In this document: piece after piece, positions 1,668 through 38,501 of the stretch | How the letters are laid out: every line of letters starts with the position of its first letter | Position numbering within the stretch: position 1 is the stretch's first letter | The notes under the pieces: model-generated | The model's input: the letters and a program-made list of their open reading frames with translations, nothing else | Told to the model about the DNA's origin: nothing | Database searches by the model: none | Made by a program: the position numbers and the translations under genes | NCBI GenBank assembly: GCA_030649165.1 | Contig: JAUSGG010000025.1 | Coordinates: 3,967-67,966, forward strand | Length of the DNA: 64,000 bases | Reading direction: 5' to 3' | DNA from: Armatimonadota bacterium | GTDB taxonomy: Bacteria; Armatimonadota; UBA5829; JAUSEB01

Positions 1668-4319
<2,652 letters not shown>

Positions 4320-6707: not shown

Positions 6708-6911
6708 CTACACTTTGCCGGGATTTCTCAGTTGTGCGAGGACAGTATCGAAGTCCTCCGGTGTTTCCTGTCCGCGCTCGATCTTCACTAGAAGATCGTC
6801 CAAGTCTTCCATGAGCCTGAGGTACGCCTTATAACTCATCACCACCGATTTCTTCCGGCCTTTGTCGTCGACTATGTATTCGATACTGCCTGTTCTCGGC
6901 ATTAGTCTCAC
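6708..6911 (-). CDS. small conserved protein (67 aa), paralog of 5411-5614; first gene of cassette B
   Basis: MRLMPRTGSIEYIVDDKGRKKSVVMSYKAYLRLMEDLDDL... 8 nt upstream of the DUF433 gene. Confidence 0.55.
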   Translation of the reverse strand: MRLMPRTGSIEYIVDDKGRKKSVVMSYKAYLRLMEDLDDLLVKIERGQETPEDFDTVLAQLRNPGKV

Positions 6912-29886: not shown

Positions 29887-30331
29887 TCAGCGCGCGTCCA
29901 GATGTTCGGAGGCCCAGGCAACTACGGCCTCGGCAAGGCGCACGGCTTCTCGGTAATCCTCTTCCGTAAGTGGCTCCTCCTCACCGGGGTAGCGTGTTGA
30001 GACGGCGTAGTCCGTGAGTAGTGTGGCGTCCAGGATCACTTCGGGGCAAGGAATGTCAGACGGCAGCAGGTTCAACAAGCTTCTTCAAGTCGTGAGTGTA
30101 GGGGAACTCGATTTGGCGGCGCACCATCACAGCCTTGATGCTCTTTTCAGCCGCCTGCTGCGCATGGTAGCAAAGCAACTCATACAAGCCGTCCGGCGGA
30201 GGCAAGCGTTTCGCCTCGACCAGATCGGCCTTCGCGAACCTCATCCACTTTCGCCATGGGCCTTCGCTTGTGTCGTCAGGCCGCATATAGTTCCCTACCA
30301 TCACGGATGATGTCCCTATAGACAAGGCCAA
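29887..30331 (-). pseudogene. HEPN toxin gene disrupted by a +1 frameshift near 30072-30078 (paralog of 35350-35757)
   Basis: Track ORFs 30056-30331 and 29887-30078 together reproduce the HEPN protein at 35350-35757 (...YTHDLKKL | LNLLPSDIP...TRYPGEEEPLTEEDYREAVRLAEAVV). A single extra base switches frame. Confidence 0.6.
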
Positions 30332-30593
30332 TTGTGTCCTTGTGCTTCTCCAAGTCTGAGGGCGTGGCCACCACGAAATCGACGGGTTTTTCTATGCCTG
30401 GAAGGTTGCGATATAGGTTCTGGGCCGTATGACGTCTGTGCGTGCCGTCCGGCATGACCACCATTACATTGAGGTCGCTATACCGGCCTGCTTCTCCACG
30501 CGCGGCTGAGCCGAACAGGACTATGCGCAAAGGGTGGACGAGATCCACTATCTGCCGCACAAGTTCGTCTAGTTCTGATGTAACTTGGCTCAT
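30276..30593 (-). CDS. MNT nucleotidyltransferase antitoxin-like (partner of HEPN)
   Basis: MSQVTSELDELVRQIVDLVHPLRIVLFGSAARGEAGRYSDLNVMVV. ~70% identical to the MNT at 35747-36076. Confidence 0.8.
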   Translation of the reverse strand: MSQVTSELDELVRQIVDLVHPLRIVLFGSAARGEAGRYSDLNVMVVMPDGTHRRHTAQNLYRNLPGIEKPVDFVVATPSDLEKHKDTIGLVYRDIIRDGRELYAA

Positions 30594-30658
30594 GTCTCCC
30601 GCTCTCCTATCTCCGAGCGTATTATACCACACGAACGGGCGGCTGTTCGTGCGGGTTT

Positions 30659-31693
30659 TCACGCCGGGTCTTGCGCGGGCGGGAGAACAGATTTGGGTTC
30701 CGAGAAGAAGGCTTCCTCTAACGTGATTGCACGTGGGGCACGTGCCAAGCGGCTGTCGCGCGTCAATGTGTACTCGCACGAGCCACCAATAGTGCCGTCG
30801 TCCCGCCGCCACATGAAGTCTGGCTTCAGCGAATAGAGGTGGCGCGTGGCCACATCGGCTGTGTTCGTGTTGAGTTCCGAAACCTTGGAACAGTTCGCGT
30901 AAAGAACCTTGGGCAAGAGCTTGTCGCTAATGAACAGTGCCAGATCGGTGTTCAAAGGCATCATGATCTGAGGCCGACACTGAAGCCGACTGCCGGATGG
31001 CCTTCGTGGTATCTCGACTGTGGGGAATATGGCTACTGGATTGTCCGAGCAGATGAAGTATCCCGCTCCATCCCGTTTGACGACTAAAGACCAGTTGAGC
31101 ACGGATAGATCGCGAGCAAATGGTTCGAAATGATCCAAAAAGTCGAGGATCAGCCTGTTTTGCGGAACATCTATGCGGTAATTATCCCTGTCAACGAAAC
31201 GCTTCATCTGCTCATAGGTCACGGTGGTTGACTCAACGAAGCCATTCCTGCGCGCCTGTTCGAGGGTGTTCTCCCATTCCTCACGTGTAGCCACCTTTGA
31301 CCTAAGGTATCTCTTCGAATCCAGTTCATTGTAGGTGGTCAACTTCTGGCGGAAGTGAAGTGTCCTCCCAGCCTGGCCTGCGACGAAGTAGATCAGGTTG
31401 ACGAAATCGTCTCCCTCCGGCAGGGTGTGATTCTGAGCCATTCTCCTAATAATGGGTGCCGCGTTGCTTTCGATCTGCCCCAGCAGGTCTTCTACGATAT
31501 TCTGGTCGATGCCCGGCGCATTTATTCGGTTGAAATCTTTGCGAACTGCTTCATTGACTGGCGTACCGATCCTGGAACATCCATCATCTTGGAGGTCGAA
31601 CACCCAGAATTTGCCATACTTATCCCCCGTGTCGGTGAACCCACCTAAGTAGAATTGCGATACGAAATGATTGCGGCGCGCTTGTTTAGCCAT
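30659..31693 (-). CDS. DUF4238 domain protein
   Basis: 344 aa. N-terminal RNHFVSQFYLGGF matches the DUF4238 H(H/Y)(V/I)PQFYL+GF signature. Local GC ~50% against a ~65% background. Confidence 0.65.
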   Translation of the reverse strand: MAKQARRNHFVSQFYLGGFTDTGDKYGKFWVFDLQDDGCSRIGTPVNEAVRKDFNRINAPGIDQNIVEDLLGQIESNAAPIIRRMAQNHTLPEGDDFVNLIYFVAGQAGRTLHFRQKLTTYNELDSKRYLRSKVATREEWENTLEQARRNGFVESTTVTYEQMKRFVDRDNYRIDVPQNRLILDFLDHFEPFARDLSVLNWSLVVKRDGAGYFICSDNPVAIFPTVEIPRRPSGSRLQCRPQIMMPLNTDLALFISDKLLPKVLYANCSKVSELNTNTADVATRHLYSLKPDFMWRRDDGTIGGSCEYTLTRDSRLARAPRAITLEEAFFSEPKSVLPPAQDPA

Positions 31694-31708: not shown

Positions 31709-32362
31709 TCAGGCCGAAGATCCCATATCTTTCACGTACCTCTCAATGAGCTCGCCCAAGTGCGGTGCCCTTTTCGCGACTTGGAGACATACGTCTCTCA
31801 AGTTGTCTTTGATGATCTGGTGGTTCTCAGGCGACACACCCGGATCCAACGTCTTCTGCCAATAAAAGCGGGACTCTGCGATCTGCTCATTTAGAAAACC
31901 CACTTGCACTTTAATCTCCGCCAACAGACTCTGAGTAGCATGCCCCAGCATCGCGAGATGTCCCAATTGCGAATCCAGGTACGGCGTGTTGAGGCTCCTC
32001 AAGGAAAGCGCGCGCCGTTCGGCGTCCTCATCGCGTTGCATTAGAACGGTGAGTTCCGCGTCGGGGTACGCGAGCAATGCGCCGATGGCTTTGCTTTGCT
32101 CTTTGTCTGCGTTCGGGCCGTCGTATGCATCAAAGACCGACTTAACCCACTCTAGAAGCGGCCTGTTCGGAGCACCAAAGCGTTTAGCGATATGATATGT
32201 GGTTGCCGCAAGCTTGGCCTGGAGTGCCCGAAGTTCTGCACCTATGGCAGGCTTCACTTCAGCAATCTCTCGACGCCTTCGTATCCCGTCGACAATGATG
32301 GGAGAGAGTACGCCCAGCAGCCATCCCAAGAAGAGGAACAGAACGCTCGGAACCTCGCTCAT
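31709..32362 (-). CDS. hypothetical protein with single N-terminal TM helix
   Basis: Start at MSEVPSVLFLFLGWLLGVLSPIIV, preceded by AGGTGAAGGTGCT. The track's 290-aa version extends into the intergenic hairpin repeat. 15 nt upstream of the DUF4238 gene. Confidence 0.55.
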   Translation of the reverse strand: MSEVPSVLFLFLGWLLGVLSPIIVDGIRRRREIAEVKPAIGAELRALQAKLAATTYHIAKRFGAPNRPLLEWVKSVFDAYDGPNADKEQSKAIGALLAYPDAELTVLMQRDEDAERRALSLRSLNTPYLDSQLGHLAMLGHATQSLLAEIKVQVGFLNEQIAESRFYWQKTLDPGVSPENHQIIKDNLRDVCLQVAKRAPHLGELIERYVKDMGSSA

Positions 32363-32552
32363 AGCACCTTCACCTCGCGCATTCACGAACTTCGGCTTCG
32401 AAGAACAAGCCGAAGCAGCGCGTGCCGACATTATAGCAGAAAGCTGGCCGTGCGGGATCTTCAACCCAGCACGCCTCTTCGCGGGGTTTCGGGGACGGCG
32501 GGTGCGCCAGGATGGGGACGGGGTTACCGTCTGCAGCTCATCACAGGCAAGT

Positions 32553-33659
32553 CTAGAACCGCTCGTCCGGCAGCACGCCATAGTTCCCGACCGCTCTCAC
32601 GATATCTGTCATCAGTTCAGCCGGAAATGAATGTCTCGGGTAAGTTGATGCCACGAACATGCTTTGCCCGCGGGGACTCTCTTGCACAGTGTAGTAATGA
32701 TAGGAATAGTTGGTTACGAACACGGCATTGAAACAGTCGGGCTGATGGGGCGTCGGTTCGCCGAATCGCTTCATCATGGCAGCCATGTCCACCCACCAAG
32801 ATACGTCGAAATCGCCAGGATCGCCAGGCGGAGCATTCAGATCGATGAAGACGGCTGCCGGAAGATCAGGTGGCAACTGCTCCAATGCCTGCTCAAGAAG
32901 GTCACCCGCCTCCTTTGTCGTGGCTTTCACTGCTGACGCAGTAACGGGCTGGTGCAGAACGCCACTCCGATGACGGCTCTTCGCCTCCACGGCGATCCGA
33001 GGTCCCGTTGGCCCATGAGTCGCCACGAACTCGGGGCGCCTGCCCTGCTGGTTCTTTCGTGGATAGTCCAATCTCCACTGGAGGCGGCAGAACATGGCTG
33101 CTACGGCCATCTCATACCTGGCTCCTTGAAAGCCGTCCCACTGCCTCAGACGGTTCAACGTACGCCGGGACAAACACTTAGTGTTTAGCAGTTGGTAGAC
33201 GTCGTAGCCAAGGGCCATCATTGATTGGGCCTCCCCACTGGGGGCAATACGCCAACCTCCAGGACACTCGTTTTCTTCCGTCGCCGACTGTTTGATCCAC
33301 TCGGAAGTGGCACGCCACCATTTGATAATCTGATGCTGGTCCTGCGGTGGTTTCTTCAACTCCGAGTTGCGCCAAGGTTTGCCGAGCGTTCGGAGGAGAA
33401 GCCAGAACAAGAATTCGTGAAAGGTTTCCGACAGCGGACGCGGATATATCTTGAGACCAACCGCACGGTAACGATGCCTGCTGTCAGCACAATCAATCTT
33501 AGGGCGACCTTGAGGATTCCTCTGGCCAGGTGCGTGGAGGGGAAGCACTGGCCATCTTTCCAGCGCTGCGTCGATTTCAGCTATCTTCTCGTGACAGCAC
33601 TCGTCGTAAAGTCGTCCACTGCCGCATGGGCATGGCCTACCTCGATGTGTCTCGGACAT
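32553..33659 (-). CDS. SEC-C motif protein with uncharacterised C-terminal domain (possible PD-(D/E)xK-like)
   Basis: N-terminal RPCPCGSGRLYDECC is a SEC-C metal-binding motif. The region RLDYP...PEF...RIAVEAKSRH could be a D...ExK nuclease motif (speculative). Confidence 0.6.
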   Translation of the reverse strand: MSETHRGRPCPCGSGRLYDECCHEKIAEIDAALERWPVLPLHAPGQRNPQGRPKIDCADSRHRYRAVGLKIYPRPLSETFHEFLFWLLLRTLGKPWRNSELKKPPQDQHQIIKWWRATSEWIKQSATEENECPGGWRIAPSGEAQSMMALGYDVYQLLNTKCLSRRTLNRLRQWDGFQGARYEMAVAAMFCRLQWRLDYPRKNQQGRRPEFVATHGPTGPRIAVEAKSRHRSGVLHQPVTASAVKATTKEAGDLLEQALEQLPPDLPAAVFIDLNAPPGDPGDFDVSWWVDMAAMMKRFGEPTPHQPDCFNAVFVTNYSYHYYTVQESPRGQSMFVASTYPRHSFPAELMTDIVRAVGNYGVLPDERF

Positions 33660-33857
33660 AGTCGATCACCAACGGCCAGGGCACCAAGAACCCCGTGCCA
33701 ACAACTCGTTGGCGATAGTATACCACACGCGCCAATGAGAACCGGCCCCATTTCGTGCTTTCCCAGCTTTCGTGTTATTCGTGATAATCCGCTATCCGCG
33801 TCTATCCGTGTCCATCTGTGGCTTTCCCTGAACCCCACTTCTTGCGATAAAGAAGTC

Positions 33858-33965
33858 CTAAAACTCCGGCGGCAATCCCCGTATCTGCGCGTAGGAAAAC
33901 ACCGGCCCGTCCACGCACACGAACAGATGCCCGATGTTCCACCGCCCGCACTTAACGATTCCGCT
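33858..33965 (-). pseudogene. duplicated 3'-terminal fragment of the flxA/asrB-like gene
   Basis: Encodes MSGIVKCGRWNIGHLFVCVDGPVFSYAQIRGLPPEF*. The last 30 aa are identical to the C-terminus of 37638-38501. DNA is ~88% identical to 37640-37745. Confidence 0.7.
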
Positions 33966-35170
33966 CATAGCTCCGAAAACGGAAGCGTTGTAACGCCCGG
34001 CGCCAGCGGCAGTCTGATGGAACCGGGGTGAATAACGTATCCGGGCCCGGCCCGGTCGCCGAAGTCGTCACGGAACGTCTTTATCGCAGACGCCATAGCG
34101 GGCCTTGGCGTCGCGGAGAGCTTCACCTCGATCGGCACGAGCCCGTCGGGGGTCTCCACGACGAAATCGACCTCCAGCCCGGCTGAAGTGCGCCAGAAGT
34201 AGATGCGAGGTTGTTCCCCCCTGTGGACGGCGGCCTTTGTCAGCTCTGACAAGACCGCGGTCTCCAGAATCGCGCCGCCCATCGGGCCGGAAGCAGCGTG
34301 GTCGGGGTCTTTCAACCCGGTCAGATAGCACAGGATGCCCACGTCCGTAAAGTAGACTTTCGGCGTTTTGACCAGGCGTTTCCCTACGTTGGCGAAGTAC
34401 GGGCGCAGGATCACGATCTGGAACGTTGCTTCCAGGACCGACAGCCAGTTCTTCACTGTGTTGACCGCCACGCCCAGGTCTCGGGACAGGTCGTGGAGGT
34501 TGAGGAGTTGGCCACTTCGCGCCGCCAATGCCCCGAGGAACGCCTGGAACTGGGTCAGATCGCCGACTTGTCTGAGTCCGCGAACGTCCCGCTCCAGATA
34601 CGTCTGTACATACGCCGAATGCCACAGACCGGCGTCGAGGTCCGGGTTGGCGACAAGCTCAGGGTATCCGCCTCGCAGGAAGCTCTCCCACAAAGCGGCG
34701 GCGCCGGCCTTCACGCCAACGGCGGACTCAGCGAACAGGGGCCTTTGAGGATCTCCGGCCGCCTCGCGGCGAGAGAGCGGAAGGAGCCGGAGGACCGCGG
34801 TTCTGCCCGCCAGGGTCTGCGTAACCGTATGGATCATCAGCAGGTTCTGAGAGCCGGTCAGGATATACTGGCCCGGCTGGTCGCGGTGATCGTCGATCCG
34901 CTCCTTGACGTAGGACAGCAGGTCCGGGGCGTTCTGAACCTCGTCAAAGATAGCGGGCGGCGGATAGGCCGCCAGGAAACCGCGCGGGTCCCCGGCCGCA
35001 AACGAGCGCGCGTCCATGGTCTCCAGGGACACGTACTTGTGCGTCTCGCCGAACAGGCGCTTGAGCAGCGTGGTCTTACCCGACTGGCGCGGCCCCGTGA
35101 GAGTTATCGCCGGGAACTGGCTCGCCGCCCGCCGGATGACGGGCTCCAAAGTGCGCTCTATATAAGCCAT
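33965..35170 (-). CDS. AAA+ ATPase (AAA_14 + DUF4143 family)
   Basis: Walker A TGPRQSGKTTLLKRL. Typical AAA_14/DUF4143 architecture. Its stop overlaps the ATG of the flxA remnant. Confidence 0.85.
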   Translation of the reverse strand: MAYIERTLEPVIRRAASQFPAITLTGPRQSGKTTLLKRLFGETHKYVSLETMDARSFAAGDPRGFLAAYPPPAIFDEVQNAPDLLSYVKERIDDHRDQPGQYILTGSQNLLMIHTVTQTLAGRTAVLRLLPLSRREAAGDPQRPLFAESAVGVKAGAAALWESFLRGGYPELVANPDLDAGLWHSAYVQTYLERDVRGLRQVGDLTQFQAFLGALAARSGQLLNLHDLSRDLGVAVNTVKNWLSVLEATFQIVILRPYFANVGKRLVKTPKVYFTDVGILCYLTGLKDPDHAASGPMGGAILETAVLSELTKAAVHRGEQPRIYFWRTSAGLEVDFVVETPDGLVPIEVKLSATPRPAMASAIKTFRDDFGDRAGPGYVIHPGSIRLPLAPGVTTLPFSEL

Positions 35171-35349
35171 CGGACGCTCCGTGATTGCATATGTGCATTA
35201 GCATTATCGGACATTGTGCATTTATAATGCATGATTGCAGGTGAAATGTCAAGCGCCCAAGGCGGCATCGCCTTGCACATTTGCGTTTGCAGTGCAGATA
35301 TTATGCATTTGAAATGCATGATTGCAATCGGTATGTTGAGTGGAGGAGC
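35171..35349. promoter_or_regulatory. AT-rich region with three near-palindromic TGCA-N4-TGCA operator-like sites
   Basis: TGATTGCATATGTGCA (35182-35197), AATGCATGATTGCA (35226-35239) and AATGCATGATTGCA (35313-35326). GC ~40%. Confidence 0.4.
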
Positions 35350-35757
35350 TTAGGCGCTGTCGTCGAAGCCAAGATAGCGGGCTGCCCAGCGAACAACCGC
35401 CTCAGCCAAACGAACGGCTTCTCGGTAATCCTCTTCCGTGAGTGGTTCTTCCTCGCCGGGGTAGCGGGTTGTGACGGCGTAGGCGCTTAGGCGAGCCGAA
35501 TCGTCAACTTCGGGGGAACGCGGGATGTCCGCGGGTAGCAGGTCGAGGAGTTTCTGTAGGTTGTGTGTATAGGGGAAATCGACGCCGGCCGCCACGAGTA
35601 TCGCTTTGAGGCTCTTCTCGACCGCCTGTTGGGCGTGGTAGCAAAGTGTCTCATACATGCCGTATTCGGGCAGAGGGCCGCGCGCCATAGCAAGATCGGC
35701 CCTGGCGTATTGCATCCATTGTTGAGGTGAGCCGAAAGCTGGACGTTCAGGCGGCAT
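35350..35757 (-). CDS. HEPN domain toxin-like protein
   Basis: YHAQQAVEKSLKA ... TRYPGEE is typical of HEPN. Confidence 0.8.
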   Translation of the reverse strand: MPPERPAFGSPQQWMQYARADLAMARGPLPEYGMYETLCYHAQQAVEKSLKAILVAAGVDFPYTHNLQKLLDLLPADIPRSPEVDDSARLSAYAVTTRYPGEEEPLTEEDYREAVRLAEAVVRWAARYLGFDDSA

Positions 35758-36076
35758 AGATCTCCTTGCCTTCGCGAAGGACTGCCCGGTATATGAGGCC
35801 TATCGTGTCCTTGTGTTTTTCGAGGTCCGTCGGGGTAGCGACTACGATATCGACGGCGACCGAGATGCCGGATAGGCGCTGGTAGAGGTCCATCGCCGTA
35901 TGGCGGCGGTGCGTGCCGTCCGGCATTACGACCATAACGTCGATGTCGCTGTCCGGCCCGGCCTGGCCGCGAGCAGCGGAGCCGAACAGGATGATGCGCA
36001 ACGGATGCGCGGCTTCGACGATGCGCTGAACCAATTCATCAATCTCTGCTTTGTTGGGTCGTTCCGGATAGGTCAT
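35747..36076 (-). CDS. MNT nucleotidyltransferase antitoxin-like
   Basis: LFGSAARGQAGPDSDIDVMVV. 11-nt overlap with the HEPN gene. Confidence 0.85.
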   Translation of the reverse strand: MTYPERPNKAEIDELVQRIVEAAHPLRIILFGSAARGQAGPDSDIDVMVVMPDGTHRRHTAMDLYQRLSGISVAVDIVVATPTDLEKHKDTIGLIYRAVLREGKEIYAA

Positions 36077-36384
36077 GATGTAACCCGGCGATATTATACC
36101 ACACGGGCGGGGAGGTGTTTCGCGGGGTTGGCGGATGAATATCCGCGGGAGTCAACCGGGATACATATCCCGGTGGATCGGTTTCCAGCCACATAATGCG
36201 AATGGAGACAGTGCAGTAAAGACGAGTTCTGGACTGTGGCAGTAAGGAGTTGTGCCGGCGATTGACAAAAACTGTCTCTTCTCTTATAGTTGAGGCAACC
36301 TGGAGCAGCCTTTGTCAATCGTGCAATGGTTGGCAGCATAGCCGTGGGTCCACGTACATTGCCTCCGAGGAGGAACAGGATCTG

Positions 36385-37365
36385 ATGAATTGGGTGGAAA
36401 GGGCATTGAACACAGAGAAGTTGTGGCCGGCTCGTGTAGCATCATTCATAGCAAGCATTGTCACCTCCATCGCTAGCGTGGCGGGGGTCGTTCTCGCTGT
36501 GAAGTCCACTGCGGACGCAAAGTTTTGGTACGTTGCCATTTCCTCCAGCGTGTACATACTGTGCTTGCTGGTTATAATGGGTTTCTTCATGATGGCGGCT
36601 ATGCGTGACGGACGACGGCTAGCCGAGAGAGACCTCACAATACAAATGTTGACTGAGCAGAAAGATGGTGCCGCTGCGGAACTGCAGGAGGCAGAGCAGC
36701 GTATATCAGTGTGTCGGCGATCGTTCGTCAGTATGCATGAGGTGGCCCATCTGTTTAGAGACGCAATGGCTCCCGCATTCATACACGACGGCTCCGCGAC
36801 AATAGACGACATGTACTTCGAGAGGATTCTGGACGCGCTAAAATCCGTCCTCGACCAATGGACTGGATTCGACACAGCACTCTCCATAAAGCTCTTTGTG
36901 GATGAACATAAGACTCTCAGAACGCTCTGTCGCGATGGGTTCTCAAAGCCCATCAGGGGTATGGATGATGACGAAAACACCTTCAAGGCCGACAAGAACA
37001 CGGCCTTCAACGTCATAATGAATGGAGAGCGATATTTTGCCTGCGGGGATGTGACCGTGGAGCCACACTATCTGAACGAGACGCCGAATTATGGCAAGCT
37101 CTATAGATCGACAATAGTCGTGCCGATAAAATTCTATGGGGGAGGGAAGAAGCTGCACTACGGCTTCCTGACGGCCGACTGGAAAGAGGCCGACGCCTTT
37201 GATCCGCAAACGGACCATTTACTTCTGGGTACCGTAAGTGATATGATAGTTCCACTTTTGGCCGAGTACAACAGAAGTTTAGGAATGGCCCAAAGTAGCC
37301 CAAAACCCATTAGCGCCAAAGTCGAGAATGAGGAAGAGGAGATCCTAGATGCCCGTAAAGTATGA
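36385..37365 (+). CDS. two-TM membrane protein with GAF-like cytoplasmic domain
   Basis: Start at ATG 36385 behind GAGGAGGAAC. Helices FIASIVTSIASVAGVVLAV and VAISSSVYILCLLVIMGFFMMAA. C-terminal STIVVPIKFYGGGKKLHYGFLTAD resembles the GAF ...vvPi...g.l.gvL motif. GC ~48%. Confidence 0.6.
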   Translation: MNWVERALNTEKLWPARVASFIASIVTSIASVAGVVLAVKSTADAKFWYVAISSSVYILCLLVIMGFFMMAAMRDGRRLAERDLTIQMLTEQKDGAAAELQEAEQRISVCRRSFVSMHEVAHLFRDAMAPAFIHDGSATIDDMYFERILDALKSVLDQWTGFDTALSIKLFVDEHKTLRTLCRDGFSKPIRGMDDDENTFKADKNTAFNVIMNGERYFACGDVTVEPHYLNETPNYGKLYRSTIVVPIKFYGGGKKLHYGFLTADWKEADAFDPQTDHLLLGTVSDMIVPLLAEYNRSLGMAQSSPKPISAKVENEEEEILDARKV

Positions 37366-37546
37366 GCCGCAGGTTGTGCAGTACGCAGGTGACACATACT
37401 ACGTGGTAACGCCATTGCCTCCCGGTAACGGCAAAGCGAAGTCTGGGAACGCCGGAAATGCGTCATCCGTCCGCAATTCAAAGGGCGAAAACACGCAGCG
37501 GCGTGGCAAAGGCAGCCCAGGTTCCGATTCCAAAGTGAAAACATAG
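37349..37546 (+). CDS. small basic low-complexity protein (65 aa), 17-nt overlap with upstream gene
   Basis: MPVKYEPQVVQYAGDTYYVVTPLPPGNGKAKSGNAGN... The overlap suggests translational coupling. Confidence 0.4.
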   Translation: MPVKYEPQVVQYAGDTYYVVTPLPPGNGKAKSGNAGNASSVRNSKGENTQRRGKGSPGSDSKVKT

Positions 37547-37580
37547 GCTATCTCGACCTAAGGGAAAGTGCTCCTACACG

Positions 37581-37610
37581 GTCTTCGGCTTCGCCTAACA
37601 AGCCGAAGAC
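37581..37610. terminator. hairpin (GTCTTCGGCTTCG..CAAGCCGAAGAC) between convergent genes
   Basis: Member of the GCTTCGGCTT hairpin family. Lies between the 37546 (+) end and the 37638 (-) end. Confidence 0.4.
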
Positions 37611-37637
37611 CTTCATCTACACTTCCACTATGTTCCT

Positions 37638-38501
37638 TTAGAACTCCGGCGGCAATCCCCTAATCTGCGCATACGAGAACACCGGCCCGTCCACGCACAC
37701 GAACAAGTGCCCAATGTTGCAGCGGCCGCATTTACCGACGCCGCATTTCATCTTCATCTCGAGCGTGGTGTAGATCTGCTCGTCGGTGAAGCCCAGAGTC
37801 GCAAGGTTCTGGAGGACGAACTTGATCATGATCGGCGGGCCGCAGGTGATGGCGATGGTGTTGTCCGGTTTCGGGGCCAAGTCGTTGAGGTAGGCGGGGA
37901 CGAAGCCGACGTTGTGCTGCCAGCCTTCCTCTTCCTTGTCGATGGTCAGGAAGAGGTTGGTGTTTTTGGAGTTGCGCCACGCGTCGAACTCGGTCTTGTA
38001 GCAAAGCAGGTCGGATGAGCGCGCGCCGTAGATCACGTCCACGCGGCCGTAGTCGTCCCGGTTGTCCAGGCAGAAGTTGAGCAGCGAGCGCAGCGGAGCC
38101 ATTCCGATGCCTCCCCCGATGAACAGCAAATCCTTGCCCTTCCATTCCTGATACGGGAACCAGTTGCCGAACGGGCCGCGGATGCCGACGACAGCCCCCT
38201 CGCTCATCTCGTGCAGCGCGTCGGTCAGCGAGCCGACCTTGCGCACGGAGAACTCGATGGAGCCGGGGCGTGTGGGCGTTGAGGCGAGACAGAACGTGGC
38301 CTCGCCGACGCCGAAGACGGAGACCTCCTGGAACTGGCCCGGCTTGTAGGTGAACTTCTCGCGCATTTCCTCGTCCTGGAAAACGGCGCGGAAGGTCTTG
38401 GTGTCCCAGGTCTCTTCGACGATCTCCTCGATGGTCGCCAAAAGCGGCTTGTACGGGTTCTGCTTCATCTGCTCGATGGTTGCTGGTTGGGCGCTACTCA
38501 T
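37638..38501 (-). CDS. FAD/NAD(P)-binding [2Fe-2S] oxidoreductase, FlxA / sulfhydrogenase gamma (HydG) / AsrB-like
   Basis: FNR-like fold with a C-terminal CGVGKCGRCNIG cluster motif. Confidence 0.85.
   Translation of the reverse strand: MSSAQPATIEQMKQNPYKPLLATIEEIVEETWDTKTFRAVFQDEEMREKFTYKPGQFQEVSVFGVGEATFCLASTPTRPGSIEFSVRKVGSLTDALHEMSEGAVVGIRGPFGNWFPYQEWKGKDLLFIGGGIGMAPLRSLLNFCLDNRDDYGRVDVIYGARSSDLLCYKTEFDAWRNSKNTNLFLTIDKEEEGWQHNVGFVPAYLNDLAPKPDNTIAITCGPPIMIKFVLQNLATLGFTDEQIYTTLEMKMKCGVGKCGRCNIGHLFVCVDGPVFSYAQIRGLPPEF

Follow-up and report, generated by a model that had tools for sequence, protein, structure and literature searches.

Two overlapping genes on the plus strand, at positions 36385 to 37546 of the 64,000-nucleotide stretch of Armatimonadota DNA analysed here (the window), are best explained as a self-contained and horizontally mobile two-protein cassette. 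The larger gene (36385..37365, +) encodes a membrane-anchored GAF protein of 326 amino acids, a putative toxin, and the smaller (37349..37546, +) a Gly/Ser/Lys/Pro-rich partner of 65 amino acids, a putative antitoxin. The pair looks like a distant and unannotated counterpart of SpoIISA/SpoIISB of Bacillus and, by analogy with that system, on balance probably works as a type II toxin-antitoxin (TA)-like module of the same kind. This precise analogue, as well as the validated toxin toxFtsL(D9), which is possibly related, had been left unnamed in the original prediction, where the pair was regarded as a plausible abortive-infection effector, a role that is possible and is weighed below.

Organization and genomic setting of the locus

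The coordinates originally predicted for the two ORFs, which share 17 nt (36385-37365 and 37349-37546, both +), were confirmed. The ATG-initiated large ORF is nested in a stop-to-stop frame covering 36250-37365 (+), in which a longer protein could start from a TTG at 36250. The ATG at 36385 is favoured because a promoter-like site, TTGACA-17-TATAGT (36262..36290, +; 11/12 in a consensus scan), located ~95 nt upstream of this ATG, falls inside the longer TTG-started frame; together with the N-termini of homologues, which in the alignment begin ~15-20 residues ahead of the first transmembrane (TM) helix, it rules out the longer start. The sequence GGAGGA lies ~12 nt ahead of the ATG, and the small ORF is preceded by a ribosome-binding site of its own, GAGGAG (37337..37342, +), within the 3' end of the large ORF and 6 nt before the small-ORF start. 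A weaker promoter-like site with a TG, TTTACT-18-TATGAT (37218..37247, +; 9/12 in the consensus scan), is found inside the large gene, ~100 nt before the small ORF. Its position parallels that of PB, the internal promoter that spoIISB possesses within the toxin gene (PMC6562991); the latter is a known promoter whereas the site described here is a weak consensus match, and the parallel is only suggestive.

Downstream, between the convergent small ORF and flxA, a 12-bp hairpin (GGTCTTCGGCTT-N8-AAGCCGAAGACC; 37580..37611) represents one of three similar copies in the 26-42 kb region (repeat family D4). No intrinsic terminator was called by the terminator scan of the locus, this hairpin being passed over because it has no T-run, and no Rfam family matched in 35900-37750. 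The [G + C] content reaches 51.1% for the large ORF and 51.9% over the whole span of the pair, not the ~48% given earlier. Its description as the lowest of the window holds at the 1.16-kb scale, where the minimum is tied with a region at ~30.9 kb (0.511 vs 0.512), and does not hold at the scale of 300-500 nt, where the minimum is located near 43.7 kb. The pair had also been presented as the sole unit of the plus strand from 27 to 62 kb, which agrees with the ORFs checked: at 44-55 kb, Pfam matches fall on minus-strand ORFs and not on the long plus-strand ORFs that these overlap.

As initially noticed, the pair lies within an insertion bounded by a duplication of the 3' end of flxA. The 3.7-kb inserted segment (33965..37638) is flanked on its left by a displaced and diverged copy of the last ~105 nt of flxA (33859..33964, -) and on its right by the corresponding 3' end in the intact flxA-like gene (37639..37744, -; gene at 37638-38501), the two copies being identical at 90 of 106 positions (85%). 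An independent Logan contig carries the same 33965..37638 segment. Besides the pair, the insertion encodes a DUF4143 AAA ATPase (33965-35170; Pfam) matching the PADLOC model PDC-S01, as well as a HEPN gene (35350-35757) and an MNT gene (35747-36076), both recognised by Pfam/PADLOC. Overall, the island around the pair comprises two HEPN/MNT pairs, a DUF4238 protein and the PDC-S01-type ATPase, which supports the earlier view of a TA/defence-type neighbourhood.

Architecture of the two proteins

The two N-terminal TM helices inferred from the raw sequence are recovered by hydropathy, by the AlphaFold model and by the alignment consensus, as a hairpin of residues ~18-40 and 47-74 (36436..36606, +) with an outside loop of ~6 residues. 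The first helix contains a small-residue motif, G-x-x-A-S-I, which is conserved across the family alignment and is of the kind that could serve helix-helix packing. The second is continuous with a stalk helix of residues 75-133 (36607..36783, +; a single helix from 45 to 133 in the AlphaFold model), the end of which corresponds to invariant alignment columns, H118-x3-H122-x2-R125-D. It is followed by a cytosolic domain, residues ~142-298 (36808..37278, +), delimited from Foldseek, a profile match and the invariant columns.

The GAF-like nature of this domain, previously proposed from a short motif, is confirmed by the predicted structure. With a multiple sequence alignment, the AlphaFold model of the 326-aa protein reached a pLDDT of 89.6 and a pTM of 0.73, whereas the single sequence gave a pLDDT of 44.6 and no usable model. 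Foldseek retrieved 126 matches from the PDB at E<=1e-3; nearly all of the best 50 of these 126 are GAF domains, and stand-alone GAFs give target-normalised TM-scores of 0.62-0.69. The best fold match is 4mmn (E 4.7e-7, target-normalised TM-score 0.69), and others include 3trc, 5w10, 3ci6, 2zmf and 1f5m. At the sequence level, the family profile matched 4mn7 at E 0.003 among PDB sequences. The Pfam models GAF, GAF_2 and GAF_3 leave the window protein unmatched even at E<=1; among 76 relatives, three match GAF_2 (best E 2.4e-4) and two match GAF. The alignment reveals K169, R183, D184, N205, Y229, Y240, L262, D265 and D286 as invariant within the domain, and a total of twelve invariant polar residues in or beside it, including H118, H122 and R125 of the stalk. 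A passive scaffold would not require so many, which suggests a ligand site or else an activity outside the TA model.

The small protein had been described as low-complexity and rich in Lys, Gly and Ser, in agreement with its composition (G9 S7 K7 V7 P6 N5 of 65; net charge +6). The partner alignment delineates one conserved beta-strand motif, VVQYAGDTYYVVTP (residues 9-22; 37373..37414, +), which reads AVHYVGKTYYVITP in the partner of the closest relative; the remainder of the protein is low-complexity. Net charge varies from -2 to +11 among the aligned partners, most of them being basic. In one subgroup the strand is followed by a linker and a C-terminal helix (kIGxxVxK ... D..H..FV.NlF), and the window-type partner has no such helix. 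Many type II antitoxins carry a DNA-binding domain; none is recognisable in this partner.

Distribution of the family and conservation of the gene pair

Neither protein of the pair is recognised by the Pfam, NCBIfam, PHROG or PADLOC models, and the absence of any known family assignment, already pointed out, is thus still true at the sequence level. An exhaustive HMMER search with the large protein uncovered 189 relatives at E<=1e-3, mostly of ~300 aa (chiefly 275-350 aa) and sharing the same architecture. The family is visible to this exhaustive search and barely to word-indexed searches, which returned only the query itself with the large protein, two proteins with a 76-sequence profile and nine with a GAF-only profile. 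Similarly, a scan of genome contigs with the single protein gave no relative, and further loci were obtained with a six-sequence subgroup alignment. The relatives are distributed over more than 10 bacterial phyla, being found in Armatimonadota, Sumerlaeota, CPR, Thermodesulfobacteriota, Proteobacteria, Bacteroidota, Nitrospirota, Spirochaetota, Acidobacteriota and Chloroflexota.

A hydrophilic ORF of 47-90 aa, on the same strand and starting ~-60 to +160 nt from the stop of the large gene, was observed in Armatimonadota, Sumerlaeota, CPR, Thermodesulfobacteriota, Proteobacteria, Bacteroidota, Nitrospirota, Spirochaetota and others. Searched from -80 to +420 nt around the large-gene stop, the beta-strand motif is present in 30 of 46 loci, for a background expectation of 0.046 per locus, and about 8 of the 46 are without an evident partner. 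Moreover, the similarities of the large and small proteins are correlated over 29 loci (Spearman 0.44, a value that none of 2000 permutations reached), showing, as far as protein similarities tell, that the two genes co-diversify. Conservation in most loci and across many phyla bears out the initial suggestion that the small ORF is a real partner and, with the co-diversification, rules out that it is spurious. A 326-codon ORF at 51% GC, a high-confidence predicted fold, 189 relatives and a conserved downstream partner together confirm that the pair exceeds chance.

There is no third conserved gene: among 128 neighbouring ORFs of 23 loci, each Pfam family occurs at most twice, and therefore the pair is the whole unit. 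The surroundings of the loci vary and are often related to mobility or defence. Examples are a resolvase, TrwB and an integrase beside L011, an IS1-like transposase beside L008, a DUF4258/MqsA TA pair beside L009 and, near other relatives, restriction-modification (RM) systems, dGTPase, PD-T4-6 and reverse transcriptases. Several loci are found among housekeeping genes, such as trpF/alaS or AdoHcyase. The sequence clusters of the family are almost all singletons, and tblastn with two family members as queries identified no relative in sequenced plasmids and phages.

Relationship to membrane-attached GAF toxins and alternative readings

SpoIISA has been described as standing apart from other TA toxins in being a membrane-attached GAF domain. 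It combines three TM helices with this domain and is lethal unless SpoIISB, a disordered protein of 56 aa encoded downstream, neutralises it (PMC6562991; PMC3057836). The window protein is predicted to share the N-terminal TM helices, two in number, and the cytosolic GAF fold, and SpoIISA dimerises through an extended N-terminal helix. In SpoIIS-type systems a small gene (~45-56 aa) lies just 3' of the toxin, a place occupied here by the 65-aa ORF with its 17-nt overlap; in both cases a hydrophilic partner of ~50-60 aa follows directly in the same operon, SpoIISB being without tertiary structure of its own. The short beta-strands of SpoIISB pair with the GAF sheet and are followed by a C-terminal helix (strands 19-22 and 26-29, helix 37-52; PMC3057836), an order that is matched by the strand-linker-helix arrangement of one partner subgroup. 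Free methionine-(R)-sulfoxide reductase (fRMsr) is, besides, the nearest structural neighbour of both the SpoIISA GAF and the window GAF. The two systems also present substantial differences. SpoIISA has three TM helices instead of two and lacks the ~60-residue stalk inserted here between the membrane and the GAF domain; it has only four invariant residues, in contrast to the many polar ones of the present GAF domain; and SpoIISABC is essentially limited to Bacilli (PMC6562991), whereas the present family occurs in many Gram-negative and candidate phyla.

Sequence tests against this system failed. The Pfam family SpoIISA_toxin has no match in the window protein or its relatives, hhalign against chain A of 3O6Q gave a probability of 0.3%, and this structure is absent at E<=10 from the profile searches of PDB sequences and from the best 50 of the 126 fold matches. 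Homology of the partner to SpoIISB/SpoIISC fared likewise, with a probability of 0.3% for the hhalign comparison of the partner alignment with chain B of 3O6Q and no match to Pfam SpoIISB_antitox. The pair is therefore termed an analogue of SpoIISA/SpoIISB and not a member of its family.

The pair may also be related to toxFtsL(D9):PanA from Gelidibacter mesophilus (WP_027127282.1 / WP_027127283.1), part of NetFlax (PMC10440598). The toxin, of 281 aa, is annotated 'GAF; FtsL; transmembrane', is predicted to form a membrane dimer and is toxic in E. coli unless neutralised by its partner, its expression resulting in filamentation, FtsZ delocalisation and delayed lysis (PMC10440598). Compared by annotation only, both are two-gene cassettes with TM, coiled-coil helix and GAF in the same order; TM, an FtsL-like coiled-coil helix and a GAF domain within ~280 aa are likewise what the model of the window protein suggests. 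Their antitoxins differ, that of toxFtsL(D9) being a Panacea (DUF4065) protein and the present partner a putatively disordered protein of ~60 aa. DUF4065 is absent from the window and from the Pfam families found in at least two of the 128 neighbouring ORFs.

In the SpoIISA/SpoIISB-like module that we propose, the large protein would be anchored in the inner membrane by its two-helix hairpin, with both termini cytoplasmic, and would form dimers by way of its long stalk helix and its GAF domain. The small protein, presumably made from the same mRNA by translational coupling and intrinsically disordered, could extend the GAF sheet by the one beta-strand that is conserved and drape its tail over the surface of the GAF dimer, and binding in this manner would keep the large protein from acting. 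The toxin would be freed once the labile partner disappears, possibly because the island is lost, because an infecting phage shuts off host expression or because stress leads to proteolysis, and it might then oligomerise further via its TM helices and either damage the envelope or block division.

Alternatively, the large protein could be a non-toxic membrane-tethered sensor that binds a small metabolite in its GAF pocket and, in a reversible manner, captures the small basic partner at the membrane or sets it free, the partner being the output, for example a regulator of nucleic acid or of another protein. We regard this as unlikely, while giving it real weight. The twelve invariant polar residues in or next to the GAF domain do suggest that a particular ligand is bound, and one of them, D265, is aligned with the Asp in '(D/E)IDS', a motif of the GAF-type fRMsr Ta0848; positive net charges, as high as +11, prevail among the partners, and some loci sit among housekeeping genes. 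However, partner charge is not conserved, since it descends to -2, and an independent activity of the partner is unlikely because only one short strand is conserved. The protein has no output domain and no conserved downstream target gene, and the patchy distribution over phyla, the nearly complete lack of clustering and the variable neighbourhoods are typical of selfish or accessory cassettes and not of core signalling.

The abortive-infection reading of the original prediction would have the GAF domain bind a cyclic nucleotide or an alarm signal made elsewhere and the TM hairpin permeabilise the membrane, the small ORF being an accessory or an inhibitor; we consider it improbable, and more so than the sensor. 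Its attraction lies in the fold, which resembles the cAMP/cGMP-binding GAFs 5w10 and 2zmf, in the defence/TA type of the island, and in the proximity of some relatives to RM systems, dGTPase, PD-T4-6 and reverse transcriptases. The arrangement also recalls CBASS 2TM effectors and SLATT proteins, in which an N-terminal TM hairpin precedes a cytosolic domain of a ligand-binding type in a defence or TA island, and the TM region faintly matches the PADLOC CBASS '2TM effector' (E 0.034) and SLATT_5 (E 0.58). These matches are far from significant, involve hydrophobic helices only and were dismissed as noise; in addition, the pair has a GAF domain in place of a SAVED, STING or cNMP-binding sensor, and no associated nucleotide cyclase or SMODS gene. 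No cyclase or other signal-producing gene is encoded in the window island or recurs beside the pair in 23 loci (128 neighbours), and the nearest relatives by sequence and fold are fRMsr-type GAFs and not cNMP-binding ones. The experimentally tested membrane-GAF toxin toxFtsL neither depolarises nor permeabilises membranes (PMC10440598 supplement).

These nearest relatives (Ta0848, 4mn7/4mmn; YebR; YKL069W, 1f5m; Pfam GAF_2) are soluble single-domain enzymes with a catalytic Cys, differing from the present protein with its membrane anchor and dedicated small partner. That the large protein would be a membrane-anchored enzyme derived from them, with an incidental small ORF, is scarcely conceivable: its best sequence and fold match is indeed the type II fRMsr of Thermoplasma acidophilum (4mn7/4mmn), over the 'S-T/E-I-V-V-P-I' and 'G-x-L-x-V/I-D-S' motifs around beta5/beta6 including the Asp equivalent to D265, but fRMsr catalysis requires cysteines, no Cys is among the invariant or nearly invariant columns of the family, the window protein has Thr/Ser at the family consensus C-x-x-C, and the partner is not incidental because it is conserved and co-diversifies with the large gene.

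A broader extension of the SpoIISA/SpoIISB-like reading, which we advance tentatively and hold to be rather doubtful as a whole, is that doubly gated membrane-anchored GAF toxins constitute a large cross-phylum superfamily, so far unmodelled, with SpoIISA and toxFtsL(D9) as divergent branches. One gate would be the disordered antitoxin at the edge of the GAF sheet and the other a ligand in a pocket formed by K169, R183, D184, N205, Y229, Y240, D265 and D286 with the His-His-Arg of the stalk. Sensor and effector would thus be combined in one polypeptide, killing or arresting the cell upon a phage- or stress-derived metabolite.

Should the large protein prove toxic and be neutralised by its partner, the design associating a TM anchor, a GAF domain and a tiny disordered partner would be widespread beyond Bacilli, dozens of diverse sequences would be available for studying the control of a membrane toxin by its GAF domain and the possible binding of a trigger molecule in the strongly conserved pocket, and ~40 examples would be added to the conserved proteins of less than 100 aa. 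If it is non-toxic, the pair would still represent an uncharacterised and conserved two-gene membrane signalling unit. The family is invisible to the present Pfam, NCBIfam and PADLOC models. At least one partner gene, that of L009, had been missed by the gene calls on record.

The overlapping gene pair and its conservation

The observation behind the original prediction is real, and stronger than was then apparent, because the pair proves to be a widespread and conserved unit. The large ORF (36385-37365, plus strand, 326 codons, ATG start) and the small ORF (37349-37546, plus strand, 65 codons) overlap by 17 nt as described. Shine-Dalgarno-like sequences lie about 12 nt 5' of the ATG of the former (GGAGGA) and 6 nt 5' of that of the latter (GAGGAG, within the 3' end of the large ORF). 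ATG 36385 is likely the true start of the large ORF, since a TTGACA-17-TATAGT site (36262-36290, 11 of 12 matches) falls within the alternative TTG-started frame and homologues have their N-terminus 15-20 residues ahead of the first transmembrane (TM) helix. The pair also appears to be, as originally stated, the sole plus-strand unit between 27 and 62 kb, the long plus-strand ORFs at 44-55 kb being shadows of minus-strand genes with Pfam matches. The [G + C] content, first put at about 48%, is 51.9% across the span and 51.1% in the large ORF; at the gene scale no part of the window is lower, but this minimum is shared with the 30.9-kb region.

A 59-aa ORF lies 34 nt downstream of the closest relative of the large protein, P0002 (39% identity), and its N-terminal stretch AVHYVGKTYYVITPMPP corresponds to VVQYAGDTYYVVTPLPP of the small ORF. 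Equivalent ORFs of 54-62 aa stand beside relatives at 24-30% identity; their sources are a metagenome, a Logan contig, a genome of CPR Jorgensenbacteria and a Sumerlaeota MAG in which the ORF had gone uncalled. Loci recovered by scans with a subgroup alignment numbered 19 in species-representative genomes and 36 in metagenomes, and most of them carry a 47-90-aa hydrophilic ORF starting about -60 to +160 nt from the stop of the large gene. Common to all partners is a short strand-like motif h-G-h-x-V-x-K/T (e.g. KIGILVEK, SIGIKVDK, SLGIKIEK, GDTYYVVT), supplemented in one subgroup by a helix, D..H..FV.NlF, at the C-terminus. A regular expression for this motif, composed post hoc after viewing partner sequences, matched in 30 of 46 distinct loci within the 500-nt downstream zone, against 0.046 expected per locus from the six-frame background of the same loci; several more carry variants outside the expression. 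Across 29 loci, the degree of pairwise similarity among the large proteins correlates with that among the small ones (Spearman 0.44, a value reached in 0 of 2000 permutations). The motif and this correlation exclude a spurious small ORF and establish it as the real partner that had been proposed.

A survey of 128 ORFs within about 3.5 kb at 23 loci revealed no recurrent third gene, no Pfam family occurring in more than two of them, so that the pair is the whole conserved unit. The neighbours span housekeeping genes, RM systems, reverse transcriptases, a resolvase, TrwB, an integrase, a dGTPase, PD-T4-6, an IS1-like transposase and a DUF4258/MqsA toxin-antitoxin pair; the relatives' pairs are thus also found near mobile and defence genes.

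Three individual loci add further observations. In Sumerlaeota locus L009, an uncalled 62-aa partner ORF (about 6720-6910, plus strand; MSKISWEKPENCPVINRTVIRVLTEAPTPQ...), homologous to the called 60-aa ORF of locus L006, exemplifies a partner missed by the gene calls on record. At L055, the large gene is followed after about 400 nt by an ORF on the opposite strand (2560-2832, minus strand) that resembles the partner and carries the SLGI motif. In Anaerolineales locus L030, as in the window, the gene immediately after the pair encodes an MNT-type nucleotidyltransferase (3500-3814, minus strand).

Family and predicted fold of the large protein

The large protein has no significant match to Pfam, NCBIfam, PHROG or PADLOC models, in line with its initial description as not assignable to a known family, and a word-indexed search of 5.8 billion proteins retrieved only itself (hypothetical protein, Armatimonadota MAG). 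Exhaustive searching of 1.84 billion cluster representatives with phmmer yielded 189 relatives at E ≤ 1e-3, of which 26 reach E ≤ 1e-10; they are mostly of 275-350 aa and aligned over almost their full length. Hydropathy places TM segments at residues ~18-40 and ~47-74, and two N-terminal hydrophobic helices are present in almost all relatives. The alignments display a small-residue motif G-x-x-A-S-I in TM1 and invariant H118, H122, R125, K169, R183, D184, N205, Y229, Y240, L262, D265 and D286.

The AlphaFold model, built with a 76-sequence alignment (pLDDT 89.6, pTM 0.73), predicts a TM hairpin, a TM2 running on as one helix to residue 133 and an alpha/beta domain at 142-298. GAF domains occupy the top of the Foldseek list against the PDB throughout, including 4mmn, a type II free Met-R-sulfoxide reductase (E 4.7e-7, target-normalised TM-score 0.69), PtsP (3trc and 3ci6), cAMP-bound Lcd1 (5w10), PDE10A (2zmf) and 1f5m. 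The family profile matches 4mn7 by sequence (E 0.003) and a small number of its members reach Pfam GAF_2 or GAF. Both the TM helices and the GAF-like domain of the original prediction are therefore retained.

Two distant relatives of the GAF module, P0143 (443 aa) and P0136 (640 aa), have a different N-terminus beginning VFISSTYxDLxEER, which we take to be DUF4062-like, a domain common in conflict systems; this suggests that the module has been recombined with other effector or sensor parts. In BFVD, the whole model also matches A0A9E7NJ10, which is annotated in Gordonia phage Finkle as a 251-aa 'membrane protein' (E 3e-8 and 14% identity, with 280 aligned columns), so that phage-encoded TM-plus-GAF proteins of the same build exist; tblastn against the phage collection found no sequence relatives.

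Comparison with membrane-anchored GAF toxins

The family of this module is covered by no curated model; its design is already known from SpoIISA/SpoIISB, the Bacillus membrane-GAF toxin and its disordered antitoxin. Two membrane-anchored GAF toxins have been experimentally characterised, one being toxFtsL(D9) of Gelidibacter mesophilus, a 281-aa protein annotated 'GAF; FtsL; transmembrane'. Its effects are filamentation, FtsZ delocalisation and late lysis, with no depolarisation, and its neutralising partner is PanA (PMC10440598). The window module follows the logic of such toxins: its membrane-anchored protein combines a helix with a GAF domain, and its tiny, low-complexity partner is translated from an overlapping ORF. 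A PanA-type partner does not recur near the family (128 ORFs, 23 loci).

Profile-sequence comparison with SpoIISA and SpoIISB, whose query sequences agree residue by residue with PDB 3O6Q chains A and B, gave no signal (hhalign probability 0.3% each). The corresponding Pfam models matched none of the window proteins, 76 relatives and 13 partners, and 3o6q was not listed by profile searches of PDB sequences, even at E ≤ 10. The family protein has two TM segments whereas SpoIISA has three, and a stalk of roughly 60 residues further sets the window protein apart. Membership of the SpoIIS family is rejected on these grounds and the module should not be filed there, its likeness appearing to lie at the level of design.

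A SpoIISA/SpoIISB-like toxin-antitoxin module is the best-supported reading of the pair, and one that we moderately favour. Beyond the observed anatomy, conservation and context, we infer every mechanistic step from the logic common to the characterised membrane-anchored GAF toxins. The large protein would dimerise via its stalk and GAF domain, oligomerise via the TM hairpin and then damage the envelope or divisome; the partner would fold onto the GAF domain by beta-augmentation, blocking this harm, and its depletion would release the toxin.

The toxin-antitoxin reading leaves unexplained the invariant polar pocket and the His-His-Arg motif of the stalk, for which ligand gating is a tentative, rather doubtful explanation. 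Invariant polar residues in such unusual abundance also speak for a non-toxic GAF sensor sequestering a small basic output protein, which the patchy, cassette-like distribution and a partner conserved in only one short strand make unlikely. An abortive-infection effector gated by a second messenger is improbable, no associated cyclase recurring among the 128 neighbouring ORFs of 23 loci and no defence model significantly matching the pair; the overall interpretation first advanced was partly right, its GAF domain, real partner and toxin-antitoxin/defence setting being borne out. A membrane fRMsr enzyme is highly improbable, the family alignment containing no conserved cysteines.

The insertion and the surrounding island

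The final ~105 nt of the flxA-like gene (37638-38501, FAD/NAD/Fe-S domains) are duplicated at 33859-33964 and 37639-37744 (90 of 106 positions identical). As foreseen, these copies bracket an insertion, a 3.7-kb segment with a DUF4143 AAA ATPase (33965-35170, minus strand; PADLOC candidate system PDC-S01, E 1e-112), a HEPN/MNT pair and both ORFs; an independent Logan contig carries the same arrangement. Leftward, the island comprises a second, diverged HEPN/MNT copy, a DUF4238 protein (30659-31693, minus strand; Pfam E 3.6e-33), an unknown ORF and a SEC-C-motif protein. DUF4238 is the name of a single-gene anti-phage system. This protein and the DUF4143 ATPase support the defence-island character of 29.9-37.6 kb and, with the HEPN/MNT pairs, uphold the neighbourhood initially described.

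The second HEPN/MNT pair (29912-30647) is 70-85% identical to the first (35384-36119) at a constant offset of 5471-5472 nt, giving an island with two paralogous toxin-antitoxin modules, and the similarity extends to the promoter-side sequence TATTATACCACACG. A hairpin element CTTCGGCTTCG..AACAAGCCGAAG occurs in three copies (32377-32415, 37570-37608 and 41671-41709) at gene ends, without a T-run, and could be a REP-like or factor-dependent terminator element. The first copy lies within the longest reading of ORF 31709-32581, whose real start is therefore probably further downstream. Repeats of the CTATCTGTGTTTATCTGTGTCCATCTGTGG type, direct and inverted (33792-33831, 39655-39678, 40429-40476, 40507-40530 and 41710-41757), are found between genes of the flx/hdr cluster and immediately beside the displaced 3' copy of flxA. 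Binding sites for a regulator are one possible identity, a small family of repeats another.
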